Virus record (IMG/VR): IMGVR_UViG_2870495154_000003
Reading direction: 5' to 3' (one strand)
Length of the DNA: 60,319 bases
From: a virus
Lineage: Duplodnaviria; Heunggongvirae; Uroviricota; Caudoviricetes
In this document: positions 252 through 9,645 of the stretch, piece after piece
Layout: every line of letters starts with the position of its first letter
Position numbering within the stretch: position 1 is the first letter of the stretch
The notes under the pieces: generated by a model
Seen by the model: the letters and a program-made list of their open reading frames with translations, nothing else
Told to the model about the DNA's origin: nothing
Databases searched by the model: none
Made by a program: the position numbers and the translations under genes

Positions 252-794
252 TTACTTGTCTTTATCCGACTGAAACTTATCAGGCACATTTCCGGTAGTT
301 TCCATCAGATAATCGGACAGCATTCGCGGGATGTTTTCATCAAGTTTTGTGCATGCGTTACAGGCTCTGACAACTTCTTTTTTCAGGCCATCCAGCATGG
401 CGGGGGTCATCTGTGGGAAGCTCCTTTGCATAGTAAGCGGCAGGCTGCCCATGATTGAAGAAATCTGACTCGCCAGTTTTGAAAGCGCATATATACAAAA
501 TTCCGTACTAATCACATCGCCGCGTTCGCGCTCGTTTTTAAGCTCCTGCGCCTCCGCCTGCGCTGTCAGCAATCTGATCCTGACTCGCAAAAGCTCATCA
601 TTATCAATCTCGCCTTTGTCGTCTGTAATCTGGTTAATTGCATTGCTAACCCGATTGTCTATTACGCTGGCAACATCATAAAACGCCTCGCGGCCTTTAC
701 GTTCAACGGGAGTCACTCCCCACTTGTCGAACGCTGTCGCACTTACACGGCAGCTTTGCGCCATGTTTTTTTTGTTCATCAGGTGCGATTTCAT
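252..794 (-). CDS. Terminase small subunit, lambda Nu1-like
   Basis: ORF 252..806 trimmed to the ATG at 792..794, which has a GGGGA SD 5 nt upstream (an ATG at 777..779 is an alternative). C-terminal half matches recalled lambda Nu1 (RLTxAQAxAQELKN..., FC, LPLxxQRxFP); the N-terminal DNA-binding region is diverged. Sits immediately downstream of a lambda-type cos. Confidence 0.8.
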   Translation of the reverse strand: MKSHLMNKKNMAQSCRVSATAFDKWGVTPVERKGREAFYDVASVIDNRVSNAINQITDDKGEIDNDELLRVRIRLLTAQAEAQELKNERERGDVISTEFCIYALSKLASQISSIMGSLPLTMQRSFPQMTPAMLDGLKKEVVRACNACTKLDENIPRMLSDYLMETTGNVPDKFQSDKDK

Positions 795-879
795 CAATAT
801 CCCCACTTAAGTAATGTTTCAGGTTGGTGTATTGGCTTTATCTTTTCCTTTTTATTCATAGAGATAGAGCGAACAACAA

Positions 880-1390: not shown

Positions 1391-1732
1391 TTACACACGA
1401 GCCAGCGGCTGAACAGAAATACCTGAGCCAACAAACGCGGCAACCTTTGCCGACAGTTCTTTTACAGACTCAGGCCAGTTCAGAGCATCAACATTTAAAA
1501 CACCTGTCTTATAAACCTGTGCCTGTGTTTTTTTCGCTGTGTCGATTTGTACAGCGGAAACATAAACCGCTTTACCTACGCTCGAACCATCCCATACCAC
1601 CAGTGCACCTGTTGCATCTTCCTGCATCAGTGGCGTAAATGCAGGAATTACCCCTTTATTAGCTGAAAATATCCCCAGCGTAGTCACCAGTGCTTCAGTG
1701 CCAGCCATGAGTTCAGTGTAATGAGTAGCCAT
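1391..1732 (-). CDS. Head decoration protein, lambda gpD-like (113 aa)
   Basis: Collinear similarity to recalled lambda gpD (PAFTPLM / PAMTPLM, LVVWDG / LVAWDG, YKTG / YKSG, NWPE / LWPE, AFVGSGIS / AFAGTAIS). Starts 10 nt after the capsid gene stop. Confidence 0.75.
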   Translation of the reverse strand: MATHYTELMAGTEALVTTLGIFSANKGVIPAFTPLMQEDATGALVVWDGSSVGKAVYVSAVQIDTAKKTQAQVYKTGVLNVDALNWPESVKELSAKVAAFVGSGISVQPLARV

Positions 1733-1741
1733 TGCTCCCCC

Positions 1742-2788
1742 TTAGCCAATGCGAACGGTAACAAAACGATTGATGCGGGCCGGTATTGGCTGTGGTGCTG
1801 AATGTGTCTGCACATATTCAATAGCCGGATCACCAGGCACAATATAGTTTTTCGGTGCAAGTTCGGCTTTAGTCAGCCCCATTCGGATTAGCTCCGGATC
1901 CTGAATACCGCCATAGGCGACAATCCCCTGAAGAGCCGTATTGCCAAGCACCATCAAATCAGGATCAAGGAAATGTTTTTCTGTTCCGTCCTCGTCGGTA
2001 TAACGCCCGCTGTAAACAACAATCGCAACATCGCCCATATACCCTTTAAAACTCACCGAATCACCAAGGTCTTTAAGGGCCGTTTCCAGTTCGGAATTAG
2101 AACCACGACGGGTATCCAAAGCCTCTTTTATCGCTCTGAATGAACGGTATTTCTTCCATACATTACCACCCATAATGATGATATTAGTGACGCCCTCACT
2201 AAATTCTGCGTAGCTCTCAATATCATCATTTGGATCAAAAGTTTCTTTATCCTTACCTGACCACTCAGTACCGCCAGACTGAGTGATGATATTTTGTGGT
2301 TTTATATTCCAGTCCAGCTCATAACGTTCAATACCATCGCCCTCAATGATATTTTTCCCCGTTGTGATTGCCTGAACAGCAAGCCATTCAATACGTGCAC
2401 GAATAGCTTTAGCCTGATTTACAATCGCCTGTTTAACTTTAATATTACGCGCCCCAAAAGCATTGTATTGCTCAGGTGACACACCAGCAGGGCGCACAGC
2501 TAACTTATTTGGATCAATGCTGCTTTTCGGCTTCATATAACCTGGACGAATTGTTTTTGATTCGTATCCCTCATCTCGTGAAACTTTACTGCCCACCATA
2601 GGAGAGCAAAACGCCGCGATCGGGATATTTGGATCGTCGATCGTATCAAGAATAATGTCTCTCGATTCAAACATTACCGAGCGAGTGAAAAACAAACTGG
2701 TAAACAACGCATTTAATTTTTTTTGCACATCTTCAGCATTAGCCACCTGCACAAGCTGTGTAGGCGAATATAAATCAACCATACTCAT
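1742..2788 (-). CDS. Major capsid protein, lambda gpE-like (348 aa)
   Basis: ORF 1742..2869 trimmed to the ATG at 2786..2788 (MSMVDLY..., AAAGAGG SD adjacent; lambda E begins MSM). Motifs NIITQSGGTEWSGKDKETFDPNDDIESYA, DTRRGSNSELETALKDLG, GDVAIVVYSG, MVLGNT, QSAP match recalled lambda gpE. Confidence 0.85.
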   Translation of the reverse strand: MSMVDLYSPTQLVQVANAEDVQKKLNALFTSLFFTRSVMFESRDIILDTIDDPNIPIAAFCSPMVGSKVSRDEGYESKTIRPGYMKPKSSIDPNKLAVRPAGVSPEQYNAFGARNIKVKQAIVNQAKAIRARIEWLAVQAITTGKNIIEGDGIERYELDWNIKPQNIITQSGGTEWSGKDKETFDPNDDIESYAEFSEGVTNIIIMGGNVWKKYRSFRAIKEALDTRRGSNSELETALKDLGDSVSFKGYMGDVAIVVYSGRYTDEDGTEKHFLDPDLMVLGNTALQGIVAYGGIQDPELIRMGLTKAELAPKNYIVPGDPAIEYVQTHSAPQPIPARINRFVTVRIG

Positions 2789-2953
2789 CCTCTTTACATT
2801 CATTACAAATAATTGTGAATATATTCTATTACCGATGTCTGCTATGCGAATACATGCAACCAAGTGCAATGTTGTATAAAATATGCCGTAACAACTTCAG
2901 TGCTGATAATTCGTGTTAATGTATTTACTTCCTTTGGTCGGGATTTATGTAGC

Positions 2954-2999: not shown

Positions 3000-3422
3000 T
3001 TAAAACGGTATATTATCGCCGTACGGATCATCATTCCCCGACTGTTGTTTTGCCCTGTTCAGTGCGTCAGTGGCCTGCCCCTGCTGGCCTTTTTTGCCGC
3101 CCGGTCGCGCCGTTCGCGCACTGATTACACTGTCTGCGATAACCTGCCAGCCCTGCCGCGTTTCGCCGTTCTGGCCTGTCCACTGGCTTACCTGCATGTT
3201 ACCCGCCACGCTCACCAATTCGCCTTTGTGGTGTTTTGCCAGTGCGTCGGCCTGTCTGCCAAACGCCAGGACGGATAACCACATCGTCGCCGTTCCGTCA
3301 TCTGCCTGGCTGCACGGCAGGGGAACCGCCATACTCGCCATCGCCATTTGTGTCCCTTTGCTGGTGGTCTTTAACTGCGGGTCAGCCACCAGCCGCCCGT
3401 AAGCCGCTATCTGTGCTGTCAT
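3000..3422 (-). CDS. ssb: Single-stranded DNA-binding protein (140 aa)
   Basis: OB-fold-like core (WLSVLAFGRQADALAKHHKGELVSVAGNMQVSQWTGQNGETRQGWQVIADSV), Gly/Gln-rich linker and acidic C-terminal tip DDPYGDNIPF, comparable to E. coli SSB ...DFDDDIPF. ATGA overlap with the upstream ORF. Confidence 0.8.
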   Translation of the reverse strand: MTAQIAAYGRLVADPQLKTTSKGTQMAMASMAVPLPCSQADDGTATMWLSVLAFGRQADALAKHHKGELVSVAGNMQVSQWTGQNGETRQGWQVIADSVISARTARPGGKKGQQGQATDALNRAKQQSGNDDPYGDNIPF

Positions 3423-3664
3423 GCTGTCTGCTCTCCGGTTTTAACGTTGATGGTTGTCACCTGTTCCGCTTCGGCAATCTCCCGTTCTGTCAGCGTGGCA
3501 AAGTTTGCAGCTGCCGTTGTCATGAATGAGCTAATCAGTTCGGGATGTGCTTTCGCATATCCTTCCCCGGCGTTGCGGTCGATGATTTTTATCGACACCC
3601 TTAACCAGTGTTCCGTCAAATCAAGGGCGTGCGATTGTGATTTTTTTGTGTGCTTCGCTGTCAT
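3419..3664 (-). CDS. Hypothetical protein (81 aa), translationally coupled to ssb
   Basis: ORF in track; its stop overlaps the ssb start (ATGA). No recognisable motif. Confidence 0.45.
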   Translation of the reverse strand: MTAKHTKKSQSHALDLTEHWLRVSIKIIDRNAGEGYAKAHPELISSFMTTAAANFATLTEREIAEAEQVTTINVKTGEQTA

Positions 3665-3712
3665 AGGCTTTATCTCACAGCAGTAAATTAAAATTTTTGC
3701 GTTTTAACCCTT

Positions 3713-3937
3713 CACCTGTTCACCTTTTGATATTTTATCTTTTAATTCATAATGTTAAGGGGTGAACAGTTTCACAAAAACTATTCACCAACTGTTCACC
3801 ACTGTTCACCCTTGAAGCTCAATAAACAATCAAAAAGGTGAACAGTGAATAGTTTGGTGAACAGTTCATAAATAACTGTTCACCCTATAACATACTGATA
3901 CAAAAGATATTTATGACAGGGTGAACAGTGGTGAACA
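3713..3937. repeat. Iteron cluster / putative replication origin: about 9 copies of GGTGAACAG in both orientations in AT-rich DNA
   Basis: GGTGAACAG or CTGTTCACC at roughly 3716, 3762, 3793, 3803, 3838, 3859, 3877, 3919 and 3929, directly 3' of the primase-helicase gene. Recurs in every copy. Confidence 0.7.
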
Positions 3938-3951
3938 GTTATTCCATAAGT

Positions 3952-5769
3952 TTAATTTTTGCTATCGTCATTAGTGACCGATACACATGATGGCATCCAG
4001 TCTTCTGATTCCTCCGTCAGTGTCACGTTTGAACGCAAACCGTGCTTCGTTTTCCGTTTCATATACTCCCTGCCATATTCCGCCATTGCCCCCGGCATAT
4101 CTTTACCGAAGCGCGTCAGTGTTACAGGTTTACCAAACCCATGTGCCTTCATATAAGCCAGATAGGCATGATAGAGATACCTGCGCGGGCTGAATGGCAC
4201 AATTTCAGCATTACCCACTAACAGGCCATCACACATTACCGACGCCATGAGATAGCCGCAGAAGTCCACCAGCGAATCACCTTCACGCTTTATCGCGAGT
4301 GCTTCTTCTGATTTCTGCTGCTCATATAAAAGGCGTCTGGCTTCGTCCTGGTCAGCAAACCGTGTAAGCAGATGACGAATCACTACCGCCAGCTCACCTT
4401 CTATTTTTTCCGCCAGCATTGAATCGCGTTCGTTCTCCGGTACAACTTCCGAAAAATTGAATATCACCCGACGGCGCGAGATCCCCCCACTGCGGTCACT
4501 GAATGACATAGCGTTATTGTTAACCGCCAGCACTACTGCCGGGATACGCGTTGAATATGGGGCTTTATGTTTTGGGTCGATTGCCACCTTGTCACCGCCT
4601 GTAATAGCCTTAATTCCCGCCCCATCACCAGCGTAGCGGGTCATATCCGGCATGATAATCAGCGAAAAGCCAACCACTAACGCGCGTTCCCTTGCATCTT
4701 CCAGCGCCTTCATGCTCGCTGATACTGTATTAGCCTTACCCGCCAGCATGGTGCAAATCTCCGCCATCACGCTTTTACCACTTCCCCCTGGACCTGTTAC
4801 CTCAATGAATAACTGCCAGTCGTACCGGTTCGCCAGCACCATGAATAATGCAGCCAGTACGCGATCCGCCTTGCGGTCATTCTCAGCCACCGAACGGCGT
4901 AACCACTTCCAGAAATTCGGCGCATGTGTTGCCAGCGTTTCCCCCTCTGCTGGTGGGCTGAAAGGTAATTCACTGGCAATTAACAACCAGTCGTTTTTGT
5001 TATGCTCCCGAAAATTACCTGTTCTGGTATCAAATACCCCGTTACTGAATCCAATCAGGTTACGGGCTGTATTCCCCATTACAGGCAAACTTAACTTCAT
5101 GGTATCGACCGCCGATTTAATGGCGTTCTGCGAATAGCTGATCTCCGCATCAATGAAAATCTGTGCCATAGCTCGCTGTAATTCTTTATCCTGTACTGGC
5201 TCCCATACAACGCCGTTGTAATGGTGAACAGTGTCAGAGTCAGCATGAATCGCCAGTTCACCGCCATAATGTGCCAGGAGAACTTCGCCGCGTTGACTTG
5301 CTCCCATCTGGTTAAGCGCCAGTGATGAAGCGTTATCGTCTTTTACCCGCTCTTTTTTCTTTACAGGCAGTTCAACTACCTTTTTCTTTTCCGCCAGCTC
5401 TCCCCGCTCACGTTCCAGATATTCGCGCCAGTTCTCCCGTTTCTGGCTGTGCATTCCTTCAGGGTAATAATCAGCATCCCTGACACCTGCCGCTGCCAGT
5501 TTCTGCCCGATGGTATTAACAAGCCCCGGACGCAATAACCCCGCCTGGTAGAGACGCACGCGATAGCGTCCGTCCGGTACGATTTGCAGGTTGTCCAGTT
5601 CGGCAAGTTGTTGCTCTCCAAGCCAGACAGGTGGCACGTTATCGCCAGCCAGTCGCCCGTCCTGTTCCTGCCACTGCGTCGCATGTGCCCACGCATCACT
5701 ACCCGCAAAAATGATGACTTCCGTCATTTTGTCACGCGGCTGGTGTTTTAAATTTGGCGCTTTTTTCAT
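3952..5769 (-). CDS. Primase-helicase, P4-alpha / D5-type (605 aa)
   Basis: ORF 3952..5784 trimmed to the ATG at 5767..5769 (GGAGAGAG SD; ATGA overlap with upstream ORF). Walker A GPGGSGKS in the C-terminal NTPase region; overall layout typical of satellite/PICI primase-helicases. Confidence 0.85.
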   Translation of the reverse strand: MKKAPNLKHQPRDKMTEVIIFAGSDAWAHATQWQEQDGRLAGDNVPPVWLGEQQLAELDNLQIVPDGRYRVRLYQAGLLRPGLVNTIGQKLAAAGVRDADYYPEGMHSQKRENWREYLERERGELAEKKKVVELPVKKKERVKDDNASSLALNQMGASQRGEVLLAHYGGELAIHADSDTVHHYNGVVWEPVQDKELQRAMAQIFIDAEISYSQNAIKSAVDTMKLSLPVMGNTARNLIGFSNGVFDTRTGNFREHNKNDWLLIASELPFSPPAEGETLATHAPNFWKWLRRSVAENDRKADRVLAALFMVLANRYDWQLFIEVTGPGGSGKSVMAEICTMLAGKANTVSASMKALEDARERALVVGFSLIIMPDMTRYAGDGAGIKAITGGDKVAIDPKHKAPYSTRIPAVVLAVNNNAMSFSDRSGGISRRRVIFNFSEVVPENERDSMLAEKIEGELAVVIRHLLTRFADQDEARRLLYEQQKSEEALAIKREGDSLVDFCGYLMASVMCDGLLVGNAEIVPFSPRRYLYHAYLAYMKAHGFGKPVTLTRFGKDMPGAMAEYGREYMKRKTKHGLRSNVTLTEESEDWMPSCVSVTNDDSKN

Positions 5770-6059
5770 TTCTGCTCTCTCCACGCGGCAATCATGTTTT
5801 TCAGTTCCTGTAGTTTTTTATCCACACGTGACACATGGTTATTTCTGGAAAGCGGGATTTCCCGCCTGAATCTGCTAATAAAGATCTCCACGTTCAGCGA
5901 ACTATGAAATGAATAGCCATCACGAATAAAATAAACACGGTCAAACATCAGTTCTTTTACCGTTACTCTGTTACCGTTCTTATCCAGATAAATAGCGCCG
6001 GGGATAATTTTTGGGTGTGCATAACCGCTGGCAGTCAAGCCAGATAAATATGTTCTCAT
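5766..6059 (-). CDS. Hypothetical protein (97 aa), translationally coupled to primase
   Basis: ORF in track; stop overlaps the primase ATG; GGGGA SD upstream. Confidence 0.5.
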   Translation of the reverse strand: MRTYLSGLTASGYAHPKIIPGAIYLDKNGNRVTVKELMFDRVYFIRDGYSFHSSLNVEIFISRFRREIPLSRNNHVSRVDKKLQELKNMIAAWREQK

Positions 6060-6065
6060 GATTAT

Positions 6066-6386
6066 TTATCCCCGATTTGAATCAGTATTCGCTTTCTTTA
6101 TGGCATTTAATGCATCTGTGGCATTTTCAATGGTGCACCGTAACGAAATATCAAACTGCCCAAGCATTGCCAGTAACAAGCCAATATTCCCCATGTCAAT
6201 GCGCATAGCCTTTTCGTCATATTCCTCATTTTCTGACGCATGCCACATCAGGCTACCAATTGACGCAACAGCCATTGATATATTGTCAGTAGCCCCATCC
6301 GCAGCGGAATAAACCTTTTTAGCAATATCATGCTCACAGTTAAAATGCGGATTAATCAGGTACTGGTAATTTGACATATCAGGCAT
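6066..6386 (-). CDS. Hypothetical protein (106 aa, [15 protein letters not shown]...)
   Basis: C-terminal part of ORF 6066..6821; the upstream part of that ORF is Pro/Arg/Leu-rich and looks off-frame. ATG at 6384..6386 overlaps the stop of the upstream ORF (ATGCCTGA). Confidence 0.45.
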
Positions 6387-6918
6387 GGCACACCCCCTGG
6401 CGAATACGGGCGGCGAATACAGCAACACAACCGGACGGGCAGCGGTTACGCGCTTCACGTTCCGTCCAGGCGGTGACGTGGATGATTTGATGGTCTGACG
6501 CGCCAAAGATGATAAAGCGCCAGAGAAAGGCGGTTTGAGAATGTACAAGGGTAGGGATAGTAGCCATGTTGGCAGCCTCCTTTGACAGTGAAGAATTTCC
6601 ACCGCAGGAAACGCCAATTTCGCTGGCGGTGGACTGAACGGGGTTGGCGTAACCGGCGTCAAAGGGAACCGGCGCTTCCGAAGAAGCCCCCGCCCAGCCC
6701 ACCATAACTTTGATGTGAGCGAATGCGGACGATAAAAAAGACGCTGGCGCGTCATATATCGCCTTTGACATTTCCAGGACGCCAATCCCGGCACCAGATT
6801 TTGCTGGTGCGGATAAATCATAGCCCTGGCTTGCAGTGGCGATCAACTGGTTTTTTACACCCGCTTTATTCAGGTTGTGCGAGTCCCGCCCTTGCGGGTG
6901 TGTGGTATGATTTCTCAT
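6379..6918 (-). CDS. Hypothetical Ala/Gly/Ser-rich protein (179 aa; alternative 62-aa start at 6567 with AGGAGG SD)
   Basis: 3' part of the 429-aa ORF 6379..7668; in-frame ATG at 6916..6918 with GAGG SD, just beyond the divergent operator region. Confidence 0.3.
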
Positions 6919-7015
6919 AGCGACCTCGATACTATCGTTATCGTTGGTGGTTAGAAGCCCCGTTACTGCTCCAACAGTGCGGGGTTTCGTCGTTTCTGCA
7001 CCTTGCATCAACAAG

Positions 7016-7067
7016 GTGTTGAACACCAATGTAAACTCAGGTGTTGAACACGTCAAGTGTTGAACAC
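7016..7067. promoter_or_regulatory. Operator-like array: three copies of the 11-bp palindrome GTGTTGAACAC
   Basis: Sites at 7016..7026, 7041..7051 and 7057..7067, in the ~200-bp divergent intergenic region between minus-strand ORF start 6918 and plus-strand ORF start 7118. Recurs in every copy. Confidence 0.6.
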
Positions 7068-7117
7068 TTGTTTTTTTTCCTGCATACTGCATTTGTTTTT
7101 TGTGAGGGGTACACAAC

Positions 7118-7297
7118 ATGGCGACAAAAGCAGTAAACGCAAAATCACAAACAGTTGCGGCAAGGGTTCCGCATGAAGTTATGAACAATGTTGAGGCGGT
7201 AAAAATGCCTGGTGAAAGTACAGGGCAATTTGTAACAGCAGCATTAAAGCGAGAAGTTGAATACCGCCAGCGACGCAAGGCTAAAGAGCAAGAATAA
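7118..7297 (+). CDS. Small ribbon-helix-helix-like DNA-binding protein (59 aa), putative regulator
   Basis: Not in the ORF track (below 60 aa). ATG at 7118 with GAGGGG SD 7 nt upstream; translation [59 protein letters not shown]; directly downstream of the palindromic operators. Confidence 0.55.
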
Positions 7298-7354
7298 TCA
7301 CTATCAGCGCTGTGGTGTGAGGTACTCCGGCGCATTGCTTTACAGGTCGGCACT

Positions 7355-7564
7355 ATGAGCAAAAAATACCTATCCACTGAAGAGATTTTCGCAGAACAAC
7401 GAAGATTGCTTTTACAGAGCATTGTTGCACGCCAGAAAGAAAAGGCACACGCTAAACAAATGCCACCAAATACAGAACCAGCGCCTACAAAATTTGCGCT
7501 TGATGAGTTTCTCAATAAACAGCCCCGGGTAATGAAAGCTAACAGGAACCGCCCACCAGGCTGA
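7355..7564 (+). CDS. Hypothetical protein (69 aa)
   Basis: ORF in track, co-oriented with the RHH gene and followed by a plus-strand terminator. Confidence 0.4.
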
Positions 7565-7628
7565 TCACATTGCCCACCAGCCAGCAAATCGCTATGATGG
7601 CTGGGCTTATGTTTAGTGTATTCCCACT

Positions 7629-7660
7629 GGCGACCTCTGATCCGGGTCGCCTTTGTTTTA
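7629..7660 (+). terminator. Rho-independent terminator (GGCGACC-tctgatccg-GGTCGCC followed by TTTGTTTTATG)
   Basis: Read directly from the sequence; sits between the convergent plus-strand ORFs and alpA. Confidence 0.6.
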
Positions 7661-7678
7661 TGTGTCATATGCCCCCCT

Positions 7679-7888
7679 TTACGCTGCCTTGCCTGAATTA
7701 ATGCGATCCCGGCTTTTAACCCATTCCATAACCTCGGACAGCAGCCAACCTACAGAACGACCGCCCAGATTACGGCGTGACGGGAAATTCCCTTTTTTCT
7801 CCAGTTCATAGCGTGTAGTGCGACACACTCCAGTTAACTTACGACATTCATCCTCACGGATTACGCGATCTTCATTTATTTCACGCAT
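7679..7888 (-). CDS. alpA: AlpA-family prophage regulatory protein (69 aa)
   Basis: Motif [43 protein letters not shown] is typical of AlpA-family HTH regulators; lies downstream of int. Confidence 0.8.
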
Positions 7889-8307: not shown

Positions 8308-9546
8308 TCAAGAATTTTGGGTGTAAATTCGCGGGGTCATAACAACGATTTTTTCATCATTGTTCTGGAGAAGCTCGAGACGGTCTACCCATAGATTAAG
8401 AGCATCACGTTTTGCATCAAGATAACGGGAGTGGTTATAGACTCGTTGCATCCCCGGCATCTGGTGGGCGGTAAGCTGCTCGACAATATGCGGATCCACG
8501 CCTAAATCGTTCAGCATGGTTGTAAATGTGTGCCGGATGTCATGCAACGACCAGGGGGCTTGATTAATGCGTCTGTGTGCCGTTCTTCCGTACTCTGCTA
8601 CGGATGATTGCCCTTTCAGTTCTCCAAGCAATAAGCCCGTGTGCCTGTTCTTCTCCACCAGCTTCATGACAAACGGCAAGATCGCTTCCGGTATTGGCCT
8701 GAATATTGCTACCTTCGTTTTGCTGTGTTCTTTCGGCACAGTCCAGAGCATTTCTTTAAAATCCCATTCCTGAACCTCGGAGCGTCTTAGCTCAGTGGTA
8801 CGGCATCCAAAGACAATCAGAAGGCGAATTAAGGCGCTGTAGTACGGCGGGAAAATTTTTTCATCCAGTGCGCGGAGTAGCTCGCCAAGCTCCTTGTTTG
8901 TTAGCACTCGCTCGCTTATTTCTGCTTTTTTTCCCACATCACCTACGACCATATCATCAAGAACGTTACTGACGGCGTAGCGACGTTTACGGCAGTACTT
9001 AAGCGCCTGCTTGCATACCTGCAACAAAAAGCCGGCTGATACCGGATTACGCTTAGCAAGCTGGTCAAAACAGGCCAGCCAGTGGCGTAGCTCGCATTTA
9101 TCCAGCGGCATAGCACCAATCTGGCTGATTATGTGCTTATTGATACGGCTTTTCAGTGATTCGTGGTCAGTGCGCTTTTCCTTCGCATACGACTCAAGCC
9201 AGTAAGTGAGCGCGTCCTTAACCGTCACAGGGGCTAACGCTTCCTGCACTGTGTGATTAAGCTCATGGCGTGGATTTTTCCCCTCCGCCAGCCAGGCGCG
9301 ACACTGTGCCGCTTTTTCCCTGGCTGCTTTCAGGCTCAGATCGGGATAGTTGCCCAGTCTCAGGCGTTCCGGTGATACCTGCCTGCCAGTTCCGGCCCTG
9401 TAAGTGAAATACCAGGTTAACAGGCCGCTGGTGGAATGTCTTACGCTAAGATTGCCACCGTCATTAAAAAAGGCGTTTTTTGTGGTTGGTGATCCGCTTA
9501 ATTTTCGTAAAAGAGTGTCGCTAAGTCTATGAATTGCGCTGCTCAT
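8308..9546 (-). CDS. int: Tyrosine recombinase / integrase (412 aa)
   Basis: C-terminal catalytic region with R...HxxR...Y signature (RTAHRR..., HDIRHTFTTML..., MQRVYNHSRYL); P4-like length and layout. Confidence 0.9.
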   Translation of the reverse strand: MSSAIHRLSDTLLRKLSGSPTTKNAFFNDGGNLSVRHSTSGLLTWYFTYRAGTGRQVSPERLRLGNYPDLSLKAAREKAAQCRAWLAEGKNPRHELNHTVQEALAPVTVKDALTYWLESYAKEKRTDHESLKSRINKHIISQIGAMPLDKCELRHWLACFDQLAKRNPVSAGFLLQVCKQALKYCRKRRYAVSNVLDDMVVGDVGKKAEISERVLTNKELGELLRALDEKIFPPYYSALIRLLIVFGCRTTELRRSEVQEWDFKEMLWTVPKEHSKTKVAIFRPIPEAILPFVMKLVEKNRHTGLLLGELKGQSSVAEYGRTAHRRINQAPWSLHDIRHTFTTMLNDLGVDPHIVEQLTAHQMPGMQRVYNHSRYLDAKRDALNLWVDRLELLQNNDEKIVVMTPRIYTQNS

Positions 9547-9573: not shown

Positions 9574-9645
9574 ACTACACCATTGACTACACCGTGCATC
9601 GTACAAGGGCAAACCGTGACGAACAATATCGAACAACCGCGAACA
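9574..9645. promoter_or_regulatory. Direct repeats upstream of int: ACTACACC x2 (9574, 9586) and CGAACAA x3 at 10-bp phasing (9619, 9629, 9639)
   Basis: Read directly from the sequence, 30-100 bp upstream of the int start codon. Confidence 0.4.

Follow-up and report, generated by a model that had tools for sequence, protein, structure and literature searches.

An initiator-linked iteron cluster as the probable replication origin of an EcCICFT073-type phage-inducible chromosomal island

What does a cluster of short repeats, placed directly behind a helicase gene, contribute to the replication of a small satellite element? The question is raised by IMG/VR record IMGVR_UViG_2870495154_000003, a 60,319-nt stretch of Caudoviricetes DNA that was analysed at its full length and is referred to here as the window. 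Matches to the 9-mer GGTGAACAG recur every ~10,487 bp across it, and the window consists of 5.75 head-to-tail copies of one 10,487-bp element, arranged as a concatemer. When the window was cut at this period, the copies differed only by six single-base homopolymer indels. All coordinates are those of the first copy, and the unit of an earlier, preliminary description of this DNA corresponds to one repeat of the concatemer. The element is a Gram-negative phage-inducible chromosomal island (PICI) of the EcCICFT073 type. Its replication module lies at 3000-6059, where all genes are on the minus strand, a correction to the preliminary description. We conclude that this module very probably contains an initiator-dependent iteron origin of the P4-alpha/PICI type.

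The exact 9-mer was found 60 times in the window, or 10 times per unit. Shuffled sequence gave an expectation of 0.33 for the whole 60-kb window, and 0/100 shuffles reached 60. Within each unit 9/10 exact copies fall in 2% of the length, at 3716-3938. Five are on the plus strand (3761, 3837, 3856, 3920 and 3930) and four on the minus strand (3716, 3792, 3802 and 3876). A degenerate copy with one mismatch lies at 3781-3789, and weaker ones lie at 3846-3854 and ~3707-3715, giving 9 exact plus 2-3 degenerate copies, or 11-12 iterons in both orientations, spaced 9-11 bp apart within groups. They occupy a 287-bp gap (3665-3951, 67% A+T) that begins straight after the initiator stop codon (3952-3954) and contains no open reading frame (ORF) of at least 40 amino acids (aa). 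The preliminary description had reported nine copies in both orientations in AT-rich DNA directly 3' of the initiator gene, followed by a small ORF and ssb, and both the cluster and the gene order were recovered. Its expectation that the motif would be enriched only at 3713..3937 held for 9/10 exact copies per unit; one exact copy lies elsewhere, at 5223. An initiator gene of its own with an iteron cluster immediately 3' is a trait of Gram-negative PICIs, and the element has it. From position, layout and homology, we infer that the gap at 3665-3951 is the origin of this element.

The copy at 5223 is probably a coding coincidence. Together with a one-mismatch copy at 5254 it was considered as a second cis-acting site, and this candidate was rejected. 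The copy at 5223 falls in T-V-H-H codons, and in L006 and L007, relatives sharing the iteron of the window element, synonymous substitutions have abolished it.

The initiator was examined for the domains expected of an origin-binding helicase. Pfam matches were obtained to D5_N (1.8e-13, a profile that the preliminary description had named for a check), to DUF5906, a superfamily 3 (SF3) helicase family (1.3e-10), and to Pox_D5 (1.5e-12), and the protein matched phrog_864 in PHROG (1e-191). It is 48% identical to residues 290-771 of the phage P4 alpha protein, which comprise the helicase and the origin-binding domain. Residues 497-593 match PDB 1KA8, the origin-binding domain of P4 alpha (E = 1.4e-24). 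The helicase motifs are intact (Walker A GPGGSGKS, D375, N417/N418, R432-434 invariant). By homology the initiator is an SF3 helicase resembling P4 alpha, with an origin-binding domain at its C-terminus.

The relation between the repeats and the initiator was assessed in related loci. L007 and L006, with initiators 87% and 77% identical to that of the window, carry GTGAACA-type repeats in the same layout. In L008 the helicase is 96% identical to that of the window element and the last ~37 residues are replaced, the difference between the two proteins being essentially confined to the last 37 residues. The L008 nucleotide homology ends at window position 4064, and its gap carries GGTAGACAG repeats. 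One genome per species was scanned for the wider set, and 38 Enterobacterales loci were analysed for repeats up to 400 bp 3' of the gene. The C-terminal motifs were of four kinds, each matched to a single iteron type with 0 mixed cases. The motif KRKTKxG[ILM]RSN[VL] was paired with GTGAACA in 13 proteins of PICI size and in 8 P4-like ones of ~812 aa. C-termini of the form ...GPDKGRxI[TS]NVLL, or like that of CFT073, were paired with GTAGACA (6 loci), IRKKSTKGN[MI]RSNI with GGTGGAGA (7 loci), and KKKATRGRIQSNITL with ACTGTCCG (4 loci). Because the C-terminal motif co-varies with the iteron type, there is strong comparative evidence that the iterons are the binding sites of the initiator, and the pattern points to the winged-helix wing as the likely determinant of iteron specificity. 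The last ~37 residues allow iteron specificity to be read, which should make origin compatibility groups predictable across PICIs, capsid-forming PICIs (cf-PICIs) and P4-like satellites.

Two further observations concern the range of iteron types. In a different E. coli island, an initiator of the RepA type is accompanied by yet another repeat (GTGAG) in the same place. Many species of Xenorhabdus and Photorhabdus carry several ~812-aa P4-alpha-like genes per genome (L113-L160), with CTGTTCAC-type repeats downstream of the genes; P4 iteron specificity is therefore widespread beyond E. coli.

The closest characterized system is EcCICFT073, which is located in strain CFT073. It has the same gene order, with a DUF4222 gene, the initiator, a 288-bp iteron gap, a small ORF, ssb and lambda E-/D-like capsid genes. 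Its initiator has the same three-part architecture, with an N-terminal domain 70% identical over aa 1-125. The two initiators are 49% identical overall and 27-35% identical in the origin-binding domain, and the iterons differ in sequence, GGTAGACAG in EcCICFT073 and GGTGAACAG in the window. The layout is nevertheless the same. Read in the sense of the gene, both gaps have the same order: two repeats in tandem, a spacer rich in A+T, a single inverted repeat, three repeats in tandem, a group of two or three inverted copies, a single repeat, another spacer and one or two further inverted copies. This is a pattern of 2 / 1 / 3 / 2-3 / 1 / 2 in which number, orientation and A+T-rich spacer match. 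The position that the preliminary description called usual for satellite and PICI origins is thus the one occupied in EcCICFT073. In that element the initiator gene plus the gap (pri-ori) keeps a temperature-sensitive plasmid replicating at the restrictive temperature, and mutants of either part fail (PMC6092414; Fillol-Salom et al. 2018).

The two elements also differ. The second spacer is A+T-rich in the window element and a G+C-rich palindrome in EcCICFT073. The window element is integrated between clpS and cspD, while EcCICFT073 lies at roxA/phoQ, and the Nu1-like terS of the window element is a further difference.

Phage P4 provides the second comparison. The 8-bp 'ori type 1 repeat' annotated in P4 (NC_001609), TGTTCACC, is part of the same 9-mer, and the 9-bp iteron is identical in P4 and the window element. 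The P4 ori (9310-9414) contains five exact copies, and the P4 crr contains three exact copies plus four with one mismatch. The C-terminal wing motif KR(K/H)TKxG(L/I)(R/Q)(S/T)N(V/L)TL is common to P4 alpha and the window initiator. In both elements an iteron cluster lies directly 3' of the initiator gene, but in P4 this cluster is crr. The P4 cis elements are split, with ori and crr 4.5 kb apart, whereas the window element has a single cluster.

The arrangement in P4 raises the alternative that the cluster in the window is a crr-like cis-acting enhancer or copy-control site, from which bound initiator loops to, or regulates, a start site elsewhere. P4 needs both ori and crr, its cluster immediately 3' of alpha is crr rather than ori, and the window initiator is an alpha homolog with the same iteron. 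Against this, no second cluster was found in the unit, the lone other exact copy (5223) is not conserved in relatives, and the EcCICFT073 initiator gene and adjacent gap suffice for plasmid replication (PMC6092414). The gap also has the features of the P4 ori, with iteron doublets beside an A+T-rich stretch of ~35 bp. We consider a crr-like site very unlikely.

The repeats could also be mainly operators, through which the initiator or another protein controls transcription into orf81-ssb or autoregulates, with a secondary role or none in initiation. Iteron-binding plasmid initiators commonly autoregulate. The cluster is placed between co-oriented genes without a predicted terminator or strong promoter, and read-through transcription must cross it. 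However, relatives without orf81-ssb downstream keep the cluster in the same place, repeat specificity co-varies with the origin-binding domain of the initiator, and the gap of the prototype EcCICFT073 is required for replication (PMC6092414). A purely or mainly regulatory cluster therefore seems to us highly improbable.

Several points weigh against the origin assignment or narrow it. The position of a cluster would not by itself prove initiation there, as the P4 cluster 3' of alpha is the crr enhancer with ori 4.5 kb away, and for this particular element the assignment draws on comparison with its relatives. Neither a DnaA box nor an IHF site nor a GATC turned up in the gap, which leaves no host-factor site to name. 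Across 42 close ori variants, obtained from 74 IMG/VR contigs and chosen by exact match to two iterons, the iteron columns had fewer changes than the spacers, a difference that was not significant (p = 0.14). Finally, ssb cannot be essential to this type of replicon. Outside Escherichia it was found beside this initiator family in 3/80 loci, and it is therefore an accessory of one lineage rather than part of the core replicon.

The initiator was labelled a primase-helicase in the preliminary description, and the primase half of that label was not supported. The D5_N, DUF5906, Pox_D5 and TIGR01613 matches cover residues 162-596, which are the helicase and origin-binding domain only. P4 alpha is a 777-aa protein with a ~290-aa primase domain made of a zinc ribbon and a TOPRIM fold (EGYATA); the window initiator has a sequence-unrelated 125-aa domain instead. 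Thus of the three domains of P4 alpha, the helicase and the origin-binding domain have homologs in the window and the primase domain is absent or replaced. Residues 1-112 gave no alignment to the alpha primase domain, and hhalign against the alpha primase region gave no match. The N-terminal domain had no significant Foldseek match in PDB; in BFVD it matched one protein, an uncharacterised phage protein. No primase profile for the initiator was found in Pfam or NCBIfam. As judged by alignment, the N-terminal 125 residues stand in the place of the primase domain of alpha. They are predicted to form an alpha/beta fold that weakly resembles TOPRIM and is without the conserved catalytic acidic residues. 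Invariant Ala-Gly pairs are found at 22-23 and 76-77, after beta1 and beta3, where TOPRIM carries Glu and DxD, and no zinc ribbon was found in the domain. The features of a DnaG/TOPRIM-type primase, Glu after beta1, DxD after beta3 and a zinc-binding domain, are thus all missing from it.

It is a separate matter whether the protein is a true primase-helicase after all, with an unusual but active N-terminal primase that makes the host primase unnecessary. An active domain of this kind would have to work without the zinc ribbon and with invariant Ala-Gly in place of Glu and DxD, and it escaped the Pfam and NCBIfam primase profiles, hhalign against the alpha primase region and Foldseek against PDB. 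We regard this as doubtful, though it deserves to be kept in mind. The 'DNA primase' annotation is probably wrong for these proteins, having passed to them from the helicase portion of P4 alpha.

The 125-aa domain was also observed as a mobile module. In E. coli islands it is fused to P4-type SF3 helicases, to RepA/AAA_25 and to a third type of C-terminal helicase (proteins P0017, P0018, P0021, P0023 and P0086; locus L009). A DUF4222 protein is always encoded just upstream of proteins with this domain, and the DUF4222 gene precedes primase-type and RepA-type initiators alike (EcCICFT073, L008, L009).

How might replication proceed from an initiator-dependent iteron origin? We propose that the C-terminal winged-helix domain of the initiator recognises the 9-bp iteron GGTGAACAG, of which 11-12 copies in both orientations, ~10 bp apart in groups, flank two A+T-rich spacers 3' of the gene. 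Bound initiators would come together in a hexamer that melts one of the spacers and loads itself there as replicative helicase. Specificity for the iteron would reside in the last ~37 residues, and this segment and the origin would be swapped together as a cassette. Priming is probably left to the host, because the N-terminal domain is without the TOPRIM acidic residues and a zinc ribbon; this is the least certain step. The SSB (single-stranded DNA-binding protein) of the element, co-transcribed downstream with orf81, would coat the unwound DNA, and its ...DNIPF tail could pass the DNA to host partners of the SSB tip. In E. coli these partners include PriA, DnaG and Pol III chi. Replication would yield head-to-tail concatemers, to be cut at a lambda-type cos site present once per unit.

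Self-loading has a precedent in the Rep helicases of Staphylococcus aureus pathogenicity islands (SaPIs), such as that of SaPI5 (PDB 7OLA), which the helicase core of the window initiator matches at 2.4e-10. In SaPIs, the stretch immediately 3' of the SF3-type rep gene is A+T-rich and has iterons on its flanks (PMC6092414). The similarity between SaPI Rep and the window initiator is distant and limited to the ATPase core, and their origin-binding domains differ. SaPIs are elements of Gram-positive bacteria, and they encode a separate Pri protein.

The iteron in common with P4 suggests that satellite families may influence one another, an idea open to test. In a cell with both satellites, the origin of each could be fired or titrated by the initiator of the other, be it P4 alpha or the PICI protein. 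In addition, primase catalysis may have been lost from the PICI initiator, leaving it dependent on host priming, possibly recruited through the SSB tail or the conserved N-terminal domain. This combined proposal is speculative, and we think it rather unlikely to be right as a whole. If true, cross-talk at the origins would amount to cross-activation or incompatibility of two families of satellites that are usually treated as independent.

The SSB of the element matched PF00436 (4e-16), in line with the ssb label of the preliminary description, and TIGR00621 (61.4 bits, cut-off 53.95). It has a divergent oligonucleotide-binding (OB) fold, with 26-28 bits to E. coli SSB structures and 70% identity to the EcCICFT073 SSB. 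The C-terminal tip, ...DDPYGDNIPF, is kept, acidic and ending in IPF. The preliminary description saw in the SSB a sign of more autonomous replication, less commonly described for such satellites. Comparison with other islands supports neither view. SSB was filed as a 'Replication' gene of Gram-negative PICIs in a 2023 survey (PMC10111431), and ssb is routine in E. coli PICIs. It is present in EcCICFT073, at least 80% of the 2.8-kb module is present in 528/5,426 complete E. coli genomes, and orf81-ssb lies beside other initiators, including the RepA type, in many more.

The co-oriented genes orf81 (3419-3664) and ssb (3000-3422) have 4 bp in common (ATGA). The orf81 product matched phrog_1231 (8e-49), a family of unknown function, and had no match in Pfam or NCBIfam. 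Its homologs were found in Escherichia, Shigella and Citrobacter only, and a weak AlphaFold 2 (AF2) model (pLDDT 70) is a helical hairpin. No terminator-like site was found on the minus strand from the initiator gene to ssb. A perfect hairpin with an 11-bp stem (ATGCCGGAAAA...TTTTCCGGCAT) lies at 2954-2982, just after the ssb stop codon. It is not clearly the ssb terminator. Its T-run is on the plus strand only, and it would therefore terminate an antisense transcript rather than that of ssb.

The remaining features support the classification of the element. The genes for a tyrosine integrase (int) and AlpA lie at one end, and genes are mostly unidirectional, in agreement with the PGAP annotation of an identical island (L001). 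The 10,487-bp unit is within the ~10-15 kb PICI range, and most of the structural and lysis genes of a phage are missing. Annotation by Pfam, PHROG and PGAP gave no portal, protease, TerL, tail or lysis gene in it, and its phage-like late genes are limited to a major capsid gene (PF03864), a decoration gene (PF02924) and a Nu1-like terS. Each unit has a single exact copy of the lambda cosN 12-mer GGGCGGCGACCT, at 928-939 on the minus strand, upstream of the small terminase gene. From this gene make-up, with a single cosN and without portal, protease, TerL, tail or lysis genes, the element is therefore a Gram-negative PICI. The full head module of a cf-PICI (capsid, protease, portal and head-tail connectors) was not found, only capsid and decoration genes. 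Relatives with an initiator of this type also occur among cf-PICI-like elements, for example LR881103. The same annotation sources gave no P4-like psu-delta-sid capsid-size operon in the unit; P4 has psu-delta-sid and is without ssb, lambda-type capsid genes and cos.

Islands with 100% identity to the 10,487-bp unit are found in E. coli chromosomes, between clpS and cspD in CREC-532 and also in other strains. The identical island in CREC-532 shows a one-base difference beside the cosN 12-mer, at about unit position 944. The integrated copy is flanked by a duplication of ~18 bp. The ends of the integrated form meet in the window at ~9619-9636, an attP junction with an ~18-bp core upstream of int, and the window is therefore the excised form, either circular or concatemeric. 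This state is indirect evidence for the induction, replication and high-frequency transfer by a helper phage that characterise Gram-negative PICIs. At 60.3 kb the window is too long for a lambda head, and neither of its ends (unit positions 1 and 7888) coincides with cos; it is therefore not a packaged molecule. It may have arisen as a replicative concatemer, through rolling-circle amplification, or from the unrolling of a circle by an assembler. Homopolymer indels such as those among the copies are typical of long-read data, and the 74 IMG/VR contigs with the origin 36-mer each have one copy.

A replication module of this kind was already known and its prototype tested, and the exact element was already annotated in RefSeq genomes. 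Since it is present in dozens of sequenced E. coli genomes, the significance of the element itself is small. The new points are incremental: an iteron identical to that of P4, the assignment of specificity to the ~37 C-terminal residues, and the doubt about the primase domain. A literature search on the 9-mer string returned primer lists only.

Table 1. Features of the 10,487-bp unit, in coordinates of the first copy in the window.
Feature	Position	Strand	Evidence or remark
Integrase, int	8308-9546	-	PF00589, PF13356
AlpA regulator, alpA	7679-7888	-	PF05930
Ash remnant and Icd-like genes	upstream region	-	PGAP
isrK RNA	6734-6810	-	Rfam, 75 bits, above gathering score
C4 antisense RNA	6622-6709	-	Rfam, 82 bits, above gathering score
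DUF4222 gene (97 aa)	5766-6059	-	Pfam PF13973, 7e-17; stop codon overlaps initiator ATG (ATGA)
Initiator 'pri-rep' (605 aa, ATG at 5769)	3952-5769	-	Pfam, phrog_864, P4 alpha homology
Initiator N-terminal domain, aa 1-125	5395-5769	-	predicted alpha/beta fold
Tenth exact GGTGAACAG	5223-5231	+	inside initiator gene, codons T-V-H-H; probably not functional
Initiator C-terminal winged-helix origin-binding domain, aa 497-595	3985-4281	-	PDB 1KA8, E = 1.4e-24
Putative iteron-specificity segment, last ~37 codons, KRKTKHGLRSNVTL...	3955-4064	-	L008 homology break; co-variation in 38 loci
Non-coding gap, putative origin	3665-3951	.	67% A+T, 11-12 iterons in six groups
Tandem iteron doublet, GGTGAACAG t GGTGAACAG	3920-3938	+	adjoins initiator stop codon; also in P4 ori 9396-9414
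A+T-rich spacer 1, candidate melting site	3885-3919	.	74% A+T; equivalent in EcCICFT073, L006, L007
One - iteron (3876-3884), then + triplet (3856, degenerate 3846, 3837)	3837-3884	.	~10 bp apart
Minus-strand triplet (3802, 3792, 1-mismatch 3781), then + iteron 3761-3769	3761-3810	.	
A+T-rich spacer 2	3725-3760	.	83% A+T
Distal iteron (3716-3724) and adjacent degenerate copy	3707-3724	-	
orf81, conserved small protein	3419-3664	-	phrog_1231, 8e-49; stop codon overlaps ssb ATG
ssb (140 aa)	3000-3422	-	PF00436, 4e-16
Lambda-E-like major capsid protein	1742-2869 (raw ORF); 1742-2782 (PGAP)	-	PF03864
Lambda-D-like decoration protein	1391-1732	-	PF02924
Second AlpA-like helix-turn-helix	996-1379	-	PF05930, 1.8e-8; PGAP: helix-turn-helix regulator
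Nu1-like small terminase, terS	252-806	-	Pfam/PHROG/PGAP annotation

Some neighbouring features of the unit were also noted. C4 and isrK are immunity RNAs of the P4 CI/seqA type, and RNAs of this type are a further likeness between P4 and the window element. Because both RNA matches lie inside the long ORF 6379-7668, this ORF is largely spurious; in its region PGAP annotates an Ash fragment and an Icd-like gene only. The second AlpA-family helix-turn-helix gene sits between the decoration gene and the cos/terS region. The gpE-like capsid and gpD-like decoration genes (1391-2869, minus strand) occur without portal or protease, as in EcCICFT073, where interference with lambda was not relieved when the capsid and decoration genes were deleted (PMC6092414). 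The capsid/decoration region also has a promoter-like site, at 2850-2823 on the minus strand.

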